From Escherichia phage vB_EcoM-813R1, in the sequence record ON470617.2: DNA of 64,000 nucleotides; one strand, given 5' to 3'. The position numbers and the translations under genes are program-made. Within the stretch, counting starts at the first letter, position 1, and the number at the start of each line of letters is the position of its first letter. The notes below the pieces were generated by a model, which saw only the letters and a program-made list of their open reading frames with translations, searched no databases and was not told the origin of the DNA. Below are positions 1-7,137 of the stretch, piece after piece.

Positions 1-988
1 GTGTACGCTGGCGGAACAGCAAGCACCTGACCGCCACGCCAGAGCTGCTTGTACTCAAGCTGGCGGCGCATTTCATACCAGCCCTGATCCAGTATCGAAC
101 GGTTTAAACCTGATTTTGCCCGGACATTGCGACCCGGATGACTTATCGTTCCCGCCGCTGACTTTGACATGTATTTAACCTTCAAATCCTCAATGACAAT
201 CATTGCGTGGTTTTTGCTGACGGTCGTTGTGACTTTGTGAAGGTAGTCCCTGCGGATATTTGCGATACGGGAATGCAGTCGCTGTATTTTGCGTTTCTGC
301 TTCTGCCAGTTGTTGCTGAATTTGACCTTGCGGCTTAACTGTCGCTGAAGTCTCGCCAGCTTCTTCTGGTTTTTCTGAAAACTATTTACAGGTTCAAAGA
401 CTGTGCCATCTGACAGCGTGGCGAGTTTAGCCACGCCAGCATCCAGTCCGACCATTGATGCTGAAGGGTGAACAGGAGTGGATACCTCTCTTTCTGTCTG
501 AATACTGATGTACCACTTACCGCAGGACTGGCTGACAGTAACATTTTTCACAATACCCGTGACCTGACGGCTATTCCGGTAGCGCATCCAGCCAAGTTTC
601 GGCAGAAAAATACGGCTGTTTTCCTGATCGAGCTTAACACCCTGCGGGTAGCGGAATGCATCATTCTGTCCCCGCTTTTTGAATCGGGGAAAAGCTGCCC
701 GATTCTGGAAGAAGTTTTTGTAAGCCCGCTCAAGGTCTTTCAGTGACTGTTGCAATGGCTGTGAGGGAGAATCTTTAAGCCATTCGGTTTCAGTGTCTTT
801 TTCCACTCAACCAACCAGGAAGCCATTTTCGTGTAAGGGATGTATTTTTTACCGGCCTCATGATTCTCATTCTGAAGCGCCAGAGCACGGTTGAAAACGA
901 AACGACAAGCTCCGGCAAAGCGCCTCATTTGATGCTCCTGTTGACCATCTGGTTTTAACCGGAATTTGAATGACACCTGTTGTTTCAT
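1..988 (-). mobile_element. tnpB: IS200/IS605-family TnpB (OrfB)-like gene, N-terminal ~330 codons; 3' end lies beyond window start; interrupted by in-frame stop at 740-742 and a frame change
   Basis: ORF 740..988 starts MKQQVSFKFRLKPDG...CRFVFNRAL (TnpB N-terminal signature); minus-strand translation of 300-420 in another frame reads ...SDGTVFEPVNSFQKNQKKLARLQRQLSRKVKFSNNWQK, typical TnpB. No tnpA seen. Confidence 0.7.
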
Positions 989-1086
989 GTCACTATTTTA
1001 AGCAAAAATAGCCGGGAGGAAAACTGTGCCTTATATCCCCACTATGAGGAGCGTAGGGGCGGCACATTGGATAAGGCGTAACAGGG

Positions 1087-4073
1087 ATGAGCTTAAGCGA
1101 TCAGGTGGTAATGGCCACCAGCATAGAAACGCTGATCGAGCTGCTAAAGAACCTGCCCGATTATGGGCGGGTTTCGTATGTGGTGACAGCGAAGGGAGAC
1201 GAGGTAAAAACAGCGTTTGATATCGTCGATGCCTCAGCTATTTTGGTATCCAATACTCTGGATGGGAAAATTAATCCTGACTATCCCCGGGAACTTCAGC
1301 CGCGCGACCGGACCCGCGCATCCAGCCTTCTTCAGGTTAACCAGATATCCAAAGATTTGCGGCCTGCTCAGCTTACCGATTCCGGATTATCCAGCCATGG
1401 CGCACCGATAATTGGTGAGGACAATGCAGTTGAGTCAGGTAATGGACGTACCATGGGGATCATTAAAGCCTATCAGGACGGTAATGCGGATCGGTATCGG
1501 GAGTACCTGATTGAACATGCGACCGAATTCGGCATACGTACTGAAAAGGTTGAATCAATGACGGCTCCGGTACTGGTGCGCCGCCGGTTAACGAAGGTTG
1601 ACCGCGTTCAGTTTGCCAAGGACTCAAATATTTCTGATCTTCAGGAAATGGCAGCCAGTGAAAAGGCTTTTGTTGATGCCGACAGCATAACACCGGCGAT
1701 GATGGCGCTGTTTAATCCGTCAGAAAGCGGAGATCTGCTTAGCCGCAGTAATGACGCGTTTATTCGCGGATTCATGACGCAAGTTGGTGCCACACAGGCT
1801 GCTGGCCTTGTAACGGAAGATGGGCGACCAACACGGCAACTTGTTGACCGTATACAAAACGCGATCTTTGCCAAGGCATATAAGGATGCGCGCCTGGTAA
1901 GGATGGTTGCAGAAGAACCTGATCCGGATATGCGTAATGTTCTGACGGCGCTTAATGCGGCAGCCAATGATTTTGTCCAGATGCAGGCTTTATCAGGAGA
2001 AGCGCACAAGCAGGCTGTGACAACTATTGTTGATGGCATTGAGACAGCGGATAGCCTCGATAAAAAGGCGCTGGCGGCATTGAAAGATGCGGTAGACCTG
2101 GTAAGGCAATCGAAGGAGTCAGGCCAGCATATTACCGATGTTATTGCTCAGGGGGATATGTTCAGCGAAACAGCCCCGGAAGTGAAAGCTCTCGCGTTGT
2201 TCATCGTCGCGAATAACCGTAGCGCGAAGCGTATGGCCACCGCCTTTAAATTGATGGCTCAACGTATCAATGATGAGTTACAGCACCAGGGCCAGGCGCT
2301 GGGGGATATGTTTGGCGGTGGTGATGTGTCGTTACAGGATATCCTTCGCCAGGTGTCTCAGGAACTGGAAAACGAAGGCATGCAAGGGATATCCGGCGGT
2401 CTTTTCGAGTCCGTTTCCGGCGGTAGTTACAACGGTGTTGCTCCATATACCAGCTTGCTATTACATCGGGCATCCGGCATCAAAGACATTATTCATCTGA
2501 TCAGGCTGCTTTCCCGTACAGATCCCCAGGATGAACAGCTTGTACAAGTGCTTGCGCATTTTGTTCGAATGCCTGTTGCCGACGTGAATAAATGGTGCCG
2601 ATTATTCGGTATCAGCAATTCGTTACTTCGCGGCTTGTTAAATCACGCATCCTCCCTTGGGCGCGATGGCTTTGACGAGATAGCGCAGGCGATAAAAAAC
2701 GGAGATATGCCACCAGCTATTGACTGGTTTTCCATTCGCCCAACCAGGGTGAAAGCATTCCTTAGCGCGGCGCATTCGGCATCACCATTGGCAGAAATGG
2801 TTCAGAGGTTGTCGCTCATATTCACAGACCATACCGCGTTGGGTGATCTGACTCTGGACGAGATGAAAGAAGCCTCCATTCAGTGGGCCGATCAACAAAA
2901 TGAGGTTAACTCAGACTTCTTGCCAGCATTCAGGAAGGCCGTTAGTAAAGCGGATGATGCCCGTGGAATTCTGAAGGCATTTAAGGCATTGCAAAGTCGT
3001 GTTAATAAACATGTCGGTGATATCGATGGGGTAACGGCGGAAGGCCGGGATATCCTTAAAGAGCACGGCATAACGCCAGAGTTTATTGATGAGATCAGGA
3101 CTGATATGCAGCGTGAGGTCGTATCGTCCCTGCAAATCGTAGCCAGAGCGTTGGCGGATGCTAATCCGAAGAGTGCGGCCATTGTTAACCGGGTTATTGG
3201 TGATATTGAAGCATCGGAGGGCATGGGGGCGCTGAAACTCTTCCTGTCGCGAGCGTTTAATCCTAACGGCAATATTCTCCTGGCATTATTGGTGAGGCTA
3301 AAAAGTATGTCAGTGAAGAAGAACTTGAGCAGCTTGACCAACTACTTAAGCGATTCTCATATAACCCGCAGACACGCTGGCAAATGAATCAGCGAAGTAT
3401 GGGTTCGGTCCACGAGAAAGTGTTATCTGCCATGAACAGTGCGATCGCAAACTCATCCGTATCTGAAGAAAAAGCTCTTGAGTGGGCCGACTCTTTTATC
3501 ACGGAAGAAGTGGAAGAAGCCCGCGCTGGACAGAATGGTGGGATAGACCTGCGCAAGGAACTTGCTGATATTTATCGCCTGACCGGCGGGAAAATATCGA
3601 CCTTATCAAAAGTGGTTCACCACCAGGGAAGGGCATATGCAAATCTAAATGGTGTTGTTGCTGTCAATTTGAACGATGAAAATGCAAGTGCACTGTGGCA
3701 CGAGCTGGGTCATCATCTTGAGTACAGTAACCCTGGTTTGTTAGAGAAAGCCCGGTCATTCCTGAAGGCCAATGTTGAAGGGGATAAGCCATCTTTCGTC
3801 AATATCGGTGGGCGTGGCAAGCCTGAATGGTGCTTCAGATCTCGATTGAGTAATATTTATATGGCGAAGGTATACCCGCCAGCCTCAGTAAGTAACACCG
3901 GGAAAATTCGGCAGAAATCACCGACTATTTCCAAAACGTCAGCAACGGAAGTATTCTCTATGGCTCTTCAGTTGTATCATGACAAAGAGGCCGCTGCCGC
4001 ATCACTGATGAATGGTGACGGATTGCTGGAACTGTTATTAGGTGTGGCAAAGGAGCTAAATAATGCAGATTAA
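1087..4073 (+). CDS. Very large multidomain protein (~995 aa) with N-terminal ParB/Srx-like motif and C-terminal HExxH metallopeptidase-like motif; split by an apparent frameshift near 3270-3390; lies where P1 has the distal darA-operon genes (ddrB region)
   Basis: ORFs 1087..3387 and 3384..4073. N-terminal INPDYPRELQPRDRTRASS resembles the ParB NPxxQPR box; ALWHELGHHLEY in the second ORF; the second ORF's frame reads through upstream as ...YSPGIIGEAKKYVSEEELEQL..., indicating one gene. Confidence 0.6.
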
Positions 4074-4371
4074 AATCGCAGCGCCATTAGGCGGAGATGC
4101 CATTATCGAATTTGATGATAATGAAGAAGTTTCCGGGCGTTTAAGCATTATCTCCGGTGACATTACCGAGGACATGATCGCTGAAGCCATAGCTGGGGCA
4201 AATCCCAATAGCTATATGGGATTCGTTAACACCCTTGATGCTCCCGCAAGTGATGTTCTCCGAACGCTGCATCTTTACGCTGGCTGGTTTGTTGATTGGC
4301 CAGCAGTAGATGGTGGCGATGAGGACGACGACGATGATTTTGGTGATCATGTAGACCAGATCGTATATTGA
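4063..4371 (+). CDS. Small acidic hypothetical protein (102 aa), C-terminus DGGDEDDDDDFGDH
   Basis: ORF overlapping the end of the upstream large gene by 11 nt, same strand (operon-like). Confidence 0.45.
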   Translation: MQIKIAAPLGGDAIIEFDDNEEVSGRLSIISGDITEDMIAEAIAGANPNSYMGFVNTLDAPASDVLRTLHLYAGWFVDWPAVDGGDEDDDDDFGDHVDQIVY

Positions 4372-4425
4372 AGAAATCCCGCCAATCGGCGGGATTTTTA
4401 CCTCACGAGAAGCTTTTTTCTGATG

Positions 4426-5496
4426 TCAGCCAACAGTGCTCGTGCAAATCTCTTGGTGGTTTTTCGACAAATGCCTCTTCAGCCACATCCTGCCAGGGAT
4501 TTGTTTAGCCCATTCAGCTATAGCGTTATGGTTTGCCGAGAATAACGGTATTGTATAGGCCTTCAGCCAGTCTAATGTGCTGGAGTTGTGTTTTTGAGCG
4601 TGATGTTTCGCATGGTGTTTGGCGATCACGATCGTAGGCACTACCCATTTACTACCGTCAGTCATTGTGAAGTGCATATTACGGGGAACAGATGACTTTT
4701 CCATCAACTCCCGAATCCCGGGAAATTTCCCCAAGATCAATCGGCGATATTCATCGCTATTGCGCCCACCAAACTCTTTGGCTTTGAATTCAAGATATGC
4801 TTCAGAAACGAGAGGTGAATCCTCTGTGTTTAGAGTTATCGCCGTGAAAAAACCAGCAGGATTGTTTTTACTATGGGCCAACCGGTGATGCGAATCATAA
4901 AAGTACCCTTTCTCGCGTTCCGATGGTTTCGACAGCAACAGCAGGCGCGAGTCATAATTGGTTAAATTGCCAGTTATCACTGCATGAGCGCGATCGCTGA
5001 TTTCCGCCGAGTTAATAACGATGAAAAGATCGTGCGGTCCAGTAAAACCAGCCAGAGACTCTTCGTTATTCAGACAATAGGTTATATAGACGCATCCCCA
5101 TGTTTCACTGATATGCACCAACCCTTTGTCAGGGTGTATTCTGAAATAATTGCCAAGAAAAGGGTGTTTTTGGGTAACTCGCTCCCAATAACGGAACATA
5201 TAGTCAATTATTGTTTTTCGACTATCGTTAATCGCAGGAGAAACAACCACTGTACGGGAACACGAATACAGTATTGTTTGCAGGATGCTAATCACTGCCA
5301 CAATAGAGGTTTCCCCAATACCATGTGGTGTGGTGGCAGTGACTTTGGCTCCGGTGTTCTTTATCGCGTTAATAATTTTTGCTTGATGAGGTGTTAACTC
5401 AATATCAAGCAACTCTTTTGCTGCCAGTTCCCAATTGTCTTTATACCGTTCTATCAGTGCTAACCAGGCAGATTCATTCTGTATACGATTAATCAC
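4426..5496 (-). CDS. Terminase large subunit (PacB)-like ATPase-domain paralog with degenerate Walker A/B and no nuclease domain
   Basis: Aligns from its N-terminus with the PacB in this window (28397..29881): shared KGYFYDSHHRLA / [12 protein letters not shown] and ITLNTEDSPLV / [12 protein letters not shown]-loop GHGTGKS is replaced by PHGIGETS and Walker B IIDEAS by VINSAE. Confidence 0.7.
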   Translation of the reverse strand: MINRIQNESAWLALIERYKDNWELAAKELLDIELTPHQAKIINAIKNTGAKVTATTPHGIGETSIVAVISILQTILYSCSRTVVVSPAINDSRKTIIDYMFRYWERVTQKHPFLGNYFRIHPDKGLVHISETWGCVYITYCLNNEESLAGFTGPHDLFIVINSAEISDRAHAVITGNLTNYDSRLLLLSKPSEREKGYFYDSHHRLAHSKNNPAGFFTAITLNTEDSPLVSEAYLEFKAKEFGGRNSDEYRRLILGKFPGIRELMEKSSVPRNMHFTMTDGSKWVVPTIVIAKHHAKHHAQKHNSSTLDWLKAYTIPLFSANHNAIAEWAKQIPGRMWLKRHLSKNHQEICTSTVG

Positions 5497-6397
5497 TTTC
5501 CACCTCTTCCGTGGTGTTTTCTTGCAGTTCTGTTAATGCAGCACGACATAGGTTCCGGGCATTGGCTATAGCCACACTTTTGACTTCATCCGTCATCGTG
5601 CAGGTAATGTACTGATCGAGTTCTTCAGCGCGGATGATGCTTTTGCCAATCAGAAACTGTATTTGCCATAGCAGATCGGCATCCATAATCAGAATTTCTG
5701 CCGGGCCTTCAGGGCCAGCCGGGAAGGAAACATAAGACTGTTTGCCCAGGCCGACAACTCGACAACTTGCTTCAAGAATTGCGCGCTTGAGGTCTGACTT
5801 TATAACGGAAACAGGTTGATTTTCACCAGTGATTACGCCGTTGACATGGAAAGGCATGTAGCTTGAAATACGCTCCACTTTCCACACGCCAGCAAGCGAT
5901 CCTTCATGCAGCACAATGGGGGTAACCGCGAGTTTCATCTCACCATATAACTGCTGGCAGATAGCTGGATTGCTGAATACATCTAAAGGCTCACATTCAA
6001 ACAGCGGCGCAATCTGCATGAGGTCCATCATGGTCATCCCTGGGGTACGAGCAGTAATGAATTTGCGCATACCAGTATCCATTGCGCTCCAGATTGCTAC
6101 ACCATGCTTTTTGCTCACTTCTTCAGTAAAGCCAAGGTGGCACATGATGGTTTTTTCGATAGCCAGATCGGAGATAGAAACCTTTTCGCCAGGTACACCA
6201 TCATTATTGATGGTCACTTCGACACTCTGGCCATTACGCAGGCGGTATTGAATTGTTTTAGTATTTTGTGCTGCCATAGTCTTTTCTCTGCTTAAAAACT
6301 GATGTATTGCGCCTTCAGGTGGGTCAGGAATGTTTTCCCACCAGCGAAAGCAATATCTCGGGGTGTTCTGTTCGTTAAAAACGCGTTCCATTGCCAA
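5489..6397 (-). CDS. Hypothetical protein (302 aa) translationally coupled to the terminase-like paralog
   Basis: Long ORF overlapping the downstream gene start by 8 nt; no recognisable motif; start may be the internal Met (MAAQNTK) at about 6280. Confidence 0.5.
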   Translation of the reverse strand: MAMERVFNEQNTPRYCFRWWENIPDPPEGAIHQFLSREKTMAAQNTKTIQYRLRNGQSVEVTINNDGVPGEKVSISDLAIEKTIMCHLGFTEEVSKKHGVAIWSAMDTGMRKFITARTPGMTMMDLMQIAPLFECEPLDVFSNPAICQQLYGEMKLAVTPIVLHEGSLAGVWKVERISSYMPFHVNGVITGENQPVSVIKSDLKRAILEASCRVVGLGKQSYVSFPAGPEGPAEILIMDADLLWQIQFLIGKSIIRAEELDQYITCTMTDEVKSVAIANARNLCRAALTELQENTTEEVESD

Positions 6398-6474
6398 CTT
6401 TGGCGTTTTTTAGCGAGTTCGTGCTTTTGTTGGCGTTTGGACCACCGCTTTTCTTTCAGTCGTTTTTTACTCAT
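6292..6474 (-). CDS. Possible small basic protein (60 aa), uncertain
   Basis: ORF MSKKRLKEKRWSKRQQKHELAKKRQ... directly downstream of ssb; overlaps the annotated start of the 302-aa gene, so one of the two starts is wrong. Confidence 0.3.
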   Translation of the reverse strand: MSKKRLKEKRWSKRQQKHELAKKRQSWQWNAFLTNRTPRDIAFAGGKTFLTHLKAQYISF

Positions 6475-6479
6475 AAACT

Positions 6480-6968
6480 CTAAAACGGAATATCGTCTTC
6501 AAAGTCCATTGGAGGTTCGTTATTGGCGCTGCTCTGAGGTTTGCCACCACCGCTGTATTGCTGGTGGTTTTGAGGTTGGTTTGACTGCCCCCAGCCATTT
6601 GAGGACTGTGAATCGTCGCGGCGAGCGCCGATCATTTGCATGGTGCCGCCCTGGCTGACGATAATTTCCGTCGTGTAACGTTCTACACCGGCGTCATCTG
6701 CCCACTTACGGGTTTTAAGTTTCCCTTCGATGTAGACCTGAGAACCTTTTCGTAAATACTCACTCGCAATTTCAGCAAGTTTTCCGAACAAAACGACTTT
6801 ATGCCATTCTGTTTGCTCTTTCTGTTGGCCCGTTTGCTTGTCGCGCCATGATTCATTCGTTGCGATGCTGAGTCTTCCGACCGCGCCGCCATTTGGTATA
6901 TACCTGATCTCCGGGTCTTGCCCCAGGGTGCCAATCAGGATGACTTTGTTTACACCGCGTTGTGCCAC
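6480..6968 (-). CDS. ssb: Single-stranded DNA-binding protein
   Basis: 162 aa, OB-fold SSB sequence with Gly/Gln-rich linker and acidic tail ending MDFEDDIPF. Confidence 0.95.
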
Positions 6969-7005: not shown

Positions 7006-7137
7006 ATGTATATCTTTGAAACGTAGCTAACAAGTGATTTGCATTATCCTGTGCCTTCTAAAGGGATCGAGTCAGTCGGTATTGGCTGTGAATGGGTGTT
7101 TGTCCTGGAGCGTAAAAAATTCGCTTATGAGGTCTTT

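Follow-up and report, generated by a model that had tools for sequence, protein, structure and literature searches.

The region at positions 1087–4371 (plus strand) of the stretch of Escherichia phage vB_EcoM-813R1 DNA analysed here (sequence record ON470617.2; 64,000 nucleotides (nt), hereafter the window) is, by sequence and gene order, the orthologue of P1 ddrB with hxr behind it, and these two genes close the late operon of darA (defence against restriction). DdrB combines an N-terminal ParB-like domain with a C-terminal zincin-like metallopeptidase (MPTase) domain, and the HExxH sequence near its end marks, as judged from conservation and a structural model, the active site of a gluzincin-like domain that is both genuine and conserved and whose peptidase activity is predicted. 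The account favoured as a whole, in which this P1 ddrB–hxr orthologue encodes a polyvalent virion protein DdrB that processes itself, the split of its reading frame is artefactual and Hxr is not detectably of the Xre type, is highly probable. An original prediction made from the nucleotide sequence had placed here a giant protein of ~995 amino acids (aa) with an unusual combination of motifs and a small acidic partner. That observation is confirmed in part, and the interpretation put on it largely agrees with published views and is thus already known.

Megablast comparison with phage genomes has shown that the window derives from a P1-like (Punavirus) phage-plasmid. Positions 1071–4369 match P1 ddrB and hxr (P1 24246–27545) with 98.2% DNA identity, and the best full-length matches over window positions 1–6500 are SJ46 and RCS47 (97.9–98.6%). 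The DNA identity of 97–98.6% and the synteny with P1, SJ46 and RCS47, including the P1-like neighbours hxr, ssb, lyz, pro, prt and darB, confirm the proposed location at the distal end of the darA operon. In the P1 record, ddrB is one gene of 2988 nt encoding 995 aa and annotated as 'possible metallopeptidase', the late promoter LPdar drives hdf–darA–ddrA–ddrB, and hxr overlaps the end of ddrB. P1 DdrB (YP_006491.1, P1_gp022) and Hxr (YP_006490.1, P1_gp021) occupy the same position as their counterparts in the window, after ddrA and before the isaB/isaA–ssb region. The window differs from P1 in having a 1-nt frame-breaking deletion in ddrB, which is a probable artefact, and an IS605-family element between ddrA and ddrB, and in lacking IS1 at isaA/isaB. 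The terms 'putative metallopeptidase' and 'DdrB-ParB domain-containing protein' already appear in some phage records.

With its frame restored, DdrB is a protein of 995 aa and 108.7 kDa. The ParB/Srx-like motif noticed at its N-terminus is a full domain: residues 36–167 (positions 1192–1587, plus strand) match the Pfam model of the ddrB-like ParB superfamily domain, PF18763, scoring 132.9 bits where the gathering cut-off is 27.6 (E = 8.3e-39). The motifs present are NPDYPR at residue 63, QPR at residues 71–73 and GNGR at residues 118–121. LQPRDRT (residues 70–76) and VESGNGR (residues 115–121) are invariant in all 21 aligned ParB domains of the homologues, and VESGNGR holds the conserved arginine of the superfamily (R121; a GxxR-type box), a residue described for the ParB domain in PMC5512222. 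A Protein Data Bank (PDB) sequence search with the N-terminal 250 residues returned noise only, and the long middle region of DdrB has no profile match. The ParB domain may bind or hydrolyse nucleoside triphosphates, or may nick or bind DNA. A 1009-aa variant is 99% identical to DdrB from residue 201 to the end and carries an unrelated, highly charged N-terminus of ~214 aa in place of the ParB domain, and a 1378-aa homologue has two ParB domains ahead of the same peptidase; these proteins are products of domain shuffling within the DdrB-type class.

The core of the MPTase domain at the C-terminus spans positions 3573–4070 on the plus strand, with HELGHHLE at 3699–3722, an invariant tyrosine at 3858–3860 and the invariant glutamate of TEVFS at 3948–3950. 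HELGH itself begins at residue 872 (3699–3713). A profile search run exhaustively over 1.84 billion cluster representatives recovered 231 proteins, themselves representatives at 50% identity, with E ≤ 1e-3, of which 32 reach E ≤ 1e-10, and the domain is mostly C-terminal in family proteins of 200–2400 aa. HExxH is present in all 74 diverse homologues, down to about 16% full-length identity, within the signature HExxHHxE(F/Y)SNP, so that the motif is indeed conserved in orthologues. The other invariant columns are an upstream arginine, a glutamate three residues after HExxH, a tyrosine, and the glutamate and serine of TEVxS. The TEVxS glutamate lies 82 residues past the first histidine of HExxH with the tyrosine in between, and the TEVFS glutamate of DdrB is likely to be the third metal ligand, as predicted from the alignment. 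Among the 74 homologues, the fusion partners are ddrB-ParB (15 proteins), Phage_Mu_F (10) and InPase (2), which is typical of phage polyvalent proteins; PMC5512222 describes the same fusions for the phage-type members of that class, and nothing essential differs.

The structural model agrees with this pattern. AlphaFold2 folds the 229-aa C-terminal open reading frame (ORF), with a 50-sequence alignment, at a mean predicted local distance difference test (pLDDT) score of 91.7 and a predicted template modelling score of 0.88, and the model resembles almost only zincins, which places it in the zincin fold. Its nearest solved folds are the gluzincins lethal factor, Pro-Pro endopeptidase (PPEP) and MtfA, and in a Foldseek search of viral models five large phage proteins match it at E ≤ 2e-5. 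Sub-threshold Pfam matches of family members likewise fall for the most part in zincin families (Reprolysin, Zincin_1, Peptidase_M90 and ATLF), with Reprolysin_4 reaching 4.6e-4. The DdrB domain nevertheless stands apart from these relatives: its identity to anthrax lethal factor and PPEP (M34) and to MtfA (M90) is only 9–14%, with no profile-level match, its signature of HExxHHxE(F/Y)SNP and TEVxSMG is its own, and its setting is intracellular and virion-associated, in contrast to the secreted toxin of the lethal-factor type. ArdC of plasmid R388 (PDB 6SNA) offers a parallel in setting, since it is likewise an antirestriction protein of a mobile element that has a C-terminal zincin domain and passes into the recipient cell.

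The combination of a ParB-like and an HExxH motif in one protein had been regarded as unusual, but a class already described in print has it as prototype. In describing the polyvalent proteins that phages and conjugative elements encode, Iyer, Burroughs, Anand, de Souza and Aravind (2017; PMC5512222) defined the DdrB-like ParB domain from DdrB itself, identified the C-terminal MPTase, and took DdrB, with its N-terminal DdrB-ParB and C-terminal MPTase domains, as the prototype. PMC5512222 states that DdrB is cut to a 76-kDa form of ~700 aa before packaging, and the authors propose that the MPTase makes the cut and that the N-terminal fragment gets packaged. The calculated mass of DdrB residues 1–700 is 76.4 kDa. 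Proteomics of the P1 virion detected DdrB by 39 peptides, at 59.5% coverage, as one of six virion Dar proteins (PMC9024508), and that paper adds that it 'aids DarB addition to capsid'. According to PMC12810830, DdrB enters after Hdf and DarA in a packaging order that depends on both, and the EcoB/EcoK phenotype is linked to it as well as to DarB and Ulx. These two studies bear out the suggestion that the protein belongs to the virion, and PMC12707154 reports that Dar works in cis on packaged DNA. Both virion packaging and processing to ~76 kDa come from literature that concerns P1 only.

The most likely scheme for the phage studied here is documented in part by published work and inferred in part. 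DdrB would be made late in infection, and its C-terminal gluzincin domain may cut DdrB itself to the ~76-kDa form of ~700 aa, which is probably the N-terminal, ParB-containing part. This form would then be loaded into the prohead in the DarA- and Hdf-dependent order described in the literature and would help to load DarB. Ejected with the DNA, it would aid the DarB-dependent evasion of EcoB/EcoK type I restriction reported in the literature.

The original prediction suggested an injected effector with DNA-binding or nicking and protease activity. In a rival reading of this kind the metallopeptidase chiefly cleaves a host target, such as a restriction subunit or another defence protein, and not DdrB. 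The closest solved folds do belong to endopeptidases of the secreted or injected toxin type (lethal factor and PPEP), and MPTases of polyvalent proteins can be effectors in other systems (PMC5512222). However, the virion form of ~76 kDa and ~700 aa described in the literature would leave the peptidase behind if, as predicted, it is the N-terminal part, and the action of Dar only in cis on packaged DNA (PMC12707154) favours a stoichiometric role over that of a diffusible enzyme. An attack on host proteins is therefore unlikely to be the chief function of the domain, and self-processing before packaging, the role favoured in print, is the preferred reading.

The reading frame of ddrB is interrupted in the window as written. 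The gene runs from the ATG at 1087 to the stop codon at 4071–4073, and its span of 2987 nt (1087–4073) is 1 nt short of a multiple of three, so that the sequence contains no uninterrupted ORF of ~995 codons. The bounds 1087–4371 of the original prediction coincide exactly with those of ORFs and its motifs are all present, but its single ~995-aa ORF had been read through a frameshift at ~3278–3280. The N-terminal and middle part is a 766-aa ORF at 1087–3387 (plus strand; stop codon at 3385–3387) with 731 native codons and a final 35 that are out of frame. The C-terminal frame occupies 3267–4073 (plus strand) and encodes native residues 732–995 and the stop codon; its first ATG opens the 229-aa ORF at 3384–4073, which contains HELGHH. 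In agreement with this, tblastn aligns P1 DdrB residues 1–754 in frame 1 and residues 732–995 in frame 3 of the window. Relative to P1, one C is absent at ~3278–3280 (TCTCCCTGG to TCTCCTGG), where CCC has become CC within CCCTGG, a CCWGG site. The global alignment of ddrB with its P1 counterpart contains 52 substitutions and this 1 indel. When the missing C is put back, the protein encoded has 995 aa and differs from P1 DdrB by 14 substitutions.

The same kind of deletion recurs along the window. When gaps relative to P1 are compared over the ~26 kb that align, ~16 short deletions emerge in the window: one removes 2 nt and the other 15 remove 1 nt each. Except for indel clusters at 5851–5852 and 6475–6481 and an extra A at 7119, all gaps are deletions from the window. 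The one-directional sites, relative to P1 or SJ46, are 797, 3278–3280, 11635, 11756, 12597, 14266, 16629, 18187, 19456, 20533, 22911, 23149, 23165, 23991, 23994, 24290 and 24742. Nearly all lie within homopolymer runs, and seven (3280, 11635, 11756, 12597, 16629, 18187 and 23165) are at CCWGG sites. The genes broken are insQ, ddrB, darB, res and mat; the insQ ORF is truncated by a 1-nt deletion in a T-run at 797, and five deletions divide darB into six frame segments, each 97–99% identical to P1 DarB except for a 58-aa piece (74%) that sits between two closely spaced deletions. One-directional deletions in homopolymers and Dcm motifs are the usual mark of unpolished long-read assemblies, and an error made systematically at methylated CCWGG sites would also arise independently more than once. 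Because ~16 deletions of this type recur in the window and protein identity between the frameshifts is near-perfect, which would not be expected of real decay, the ddrB split is very probably a sequencing or assembly (basecalling) artefact and the true gene intact.

If the frameshift were real, ddrB would be a pseudogene, or a split gene that makes a 766-aa ParB protein without the peptidase and possibly a separate 229-aa peptidase. The sequence as it stands does contain the deletion, the stop codon of the 766-aa ORF and the ATG at 3384 overlap as ATGA, and ddrB is non-essential, as is hxr (PMC10695390). A 61-nt probe over the site finds the deleted form in none of 476 RefSeq complete E. coli records and in one of 480 PLSDB plasmids, CP121349.1 (E. 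coli plasmid pH1998-p0111), where the deletion is at position 3092. The rarity of the variant, the unannotated and GenBank-only status of its sole other carrier, and the similar short deletions in homopolymers and CCWGG sites throughout the window, with darB segments so well preserved on either side of them, make a real frameshift very unlikely. The sharing of the deletion by CP121349.1 suggests a recurrent motif-linked basecalling error over common ancestry. Programmed frameshifting at 3278 was also considered and is rejected, as all other P1-like records except CP121349.1 are in frame and many equivalent deletions occur elsewhere in the window.

The small acidic protein that had been noted after ddrB is present as a 102-aa ORF, hxr, at 4063–4371 (plus strand). 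The two genes share 11 nt, the ATG of hxr being placed within the end of ddrB, and the sequence AAGGAG is found 8 nt upstream of this ATG. Hxr ends in the poly-Asp tail DGGDEDDDDD, contains 23 Asp and Glu against three Lys and Arg residues (isoelectric point (pI) 4.05), and is 98% identical to P1 Hxr, both proteins being 102 aa long. It belongs to phrog_2292, of unknown function, and its homologues are almost restricted to P1-like elements. The poly-Asp run (window 4312–4335) varies from five to eight Asp among P1-like elements, SJ46 having one GAC repeat more than the window; slippage in a GAC/GAT repeat would be expected to give such variation. Searches of Pfam, NCBIfam and PHROGs gave no match to a family with a function and no helix-turn-helix (HTH). 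The AlphaFold2 model of Hxr, of low confidence (pLDDT 67), has a beta-beta-beta-alpha-alpha-beta order followed by a disordered acidic tail, and with this weak model Foldseek found no PDB fold match at E < 1.

Hxr is thus described here as a translationally coupled, very acidic small protein that is not detectably an Xre-type repressor. It has been thought of as a chaperone or a DNA mimic, and its strongly acidic composition, with the pI given above, is that of Ocr/ArdA-like DNA mimics. As a Dar partner it could be a mimic or decoy against restriction or defence proteins, or an inhibitor or chaperone that restrains the DdrB metallopeptidase until head assembly, and such a role is considered distinctly unlikely. 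Hxr is not among the P1 virion proteins reported in PMC9024508. A 60%-identical homologue at 2024–2326 of a 2.7-kb contig adjoins dinI and has no ddrB-like ORF upstream, and Hxr-like genes may therefore be independent of ddrB. An obligate coupling of Hxr and DdrB is weakened, not rejected, by this single case. The P1 annotation makes Hxr an Xre-type transcriptional repressor, citing a stretch of ~58 aa that is 28% identical to the Xre repressor. This assignment is highly improbable, since none of the three family libraries yields an HTH family, the predicted secondary structure, albeit from the low-confidence model, is beta-rich with an acidic tail and not a five-helix bundle, a protein of such low pI with only three basic residues is unsuited to DNA binding, and the gene is the last in an operon of late structural genes. 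The data thus lend no support to calling Hxr an 'Xre homologue'.

Several results weigh against the favoured account of the locus. The C-terminal domain has no match to a Pfam or NCBIfam model, the polyvalent-protein MPTase model included, and the window protein finds nothing there even at E ≤ 10, so that the profile searches proposed at the outset recovered the ParB-like domain and, for the zincin, sub-threshold matches in family members only. The PHROGs search of the domain gave no functional match, and PDB sequence searches with the C-terminal protein and its 33-sequence profile returned noise only. CP121349.1 differs from the window by 38 single-nucleotide polymorphisms over 3.3 kb and yet has the identical CCCTGG to CCTGG deletion, which could be a real allele. 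Autoproteolysis of DdrB is a published hypothesis, and the prohead protease Pro could make the cut; that the packaged fragment is N-terminal is itself a prediction of PMC5512222. Although the missing curated profile and PDB sequence match could be taken to mean that HExxH is a chance pentapeptide and the C-terminal region not a peptidase, and although the ~0.026 occurrences expected from the composition of DdrB leave some room for chance, this reading is effectively refuted by the conservation of the motif in all 74 homologues together with the distal glutamate and tyrosine, and by a high-confidence model that matches almost only zincins. The significance of HExxH accordingly rests on conservation and fold and not on its occurrence alone, and the C-terminal domain is retained as a conserved gluzincin-like domain with predicted peptidase activity.

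The sequence on either side of ddrB and hxr differs from that of P1. Positions 1–1070 (minus strand) are part of an IS605-family element with an insQ/tnpB-type transposase and an N-terminal HTH_OrfB_IS605 domain, and P1 similarity begins at 1071. The minus-strand ORF at 740–988 matches PF12323 (HTH_OrfB_IS605) with E = 2e-17 in Pfam, and the start of the window falls within this insQ element. The SJ46 annotation places insQ between ddrA and ddrB as in the window; the element is found at this position in SJ46 and RCS47 and not in P1, and it parts ddrB and hxr from the remaining darA operon and its late promoter. The first 455–970 nt of the window also match copies of the element in phage If1 and in a Morganella phage. 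Within ddrB, an antisense ORF of 132 aa (1641–2039, minus strand) matches what is annotated in P1 as iddB ('unknown protein function'), with nothing observed here to mark it as a real gene.

Downstream of hxr, a hairpin with a 12-bp GC-rich stem and flanking T and A runs lies at 4372–4399, between the convergent hxr (plus strand) and the ORF at 4426–5496 (minus strand). Its RNA fold has an energy of −19.3 kcal/mol (z = −5.2), and none of 200 shuffled sequences is equally stable. A simple terminator scan missed the hairpin, which was found by direct folding; it is a probable bidirectional intrinsic terminator that closes the operon. The isaB/isaA locus of the window is without IS1, and ORFs of 356 aa (4426–5496, minus strand) and 302 aa (5489–6397, minus strand) stand in place of P1 isaB, IS1 and isaA. 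The 356-aa ORF has a weak resemblance to the ATPase part of the terminase large subunit (phrog_2, E = 3e-9), and some P1 records name it 'terminase large subunit'.

The ParB and metallopeptidase architecture of DdrB has already been published, as has the position of the protein in the Dar antirestriction system of P1, and the locus therefore carries little weight as a discovery. The 1-nt deletions at homopolymers and CCWGG sites that break ddrB, darB, res, mat and insQ mean that gene calls on the window are unreliable without polishing. For the protein class, the peptidase domain of DdrB type forms a well-defined family, with its 231 representatives at 50% identity, although none of the Pfam models searched picks it up.

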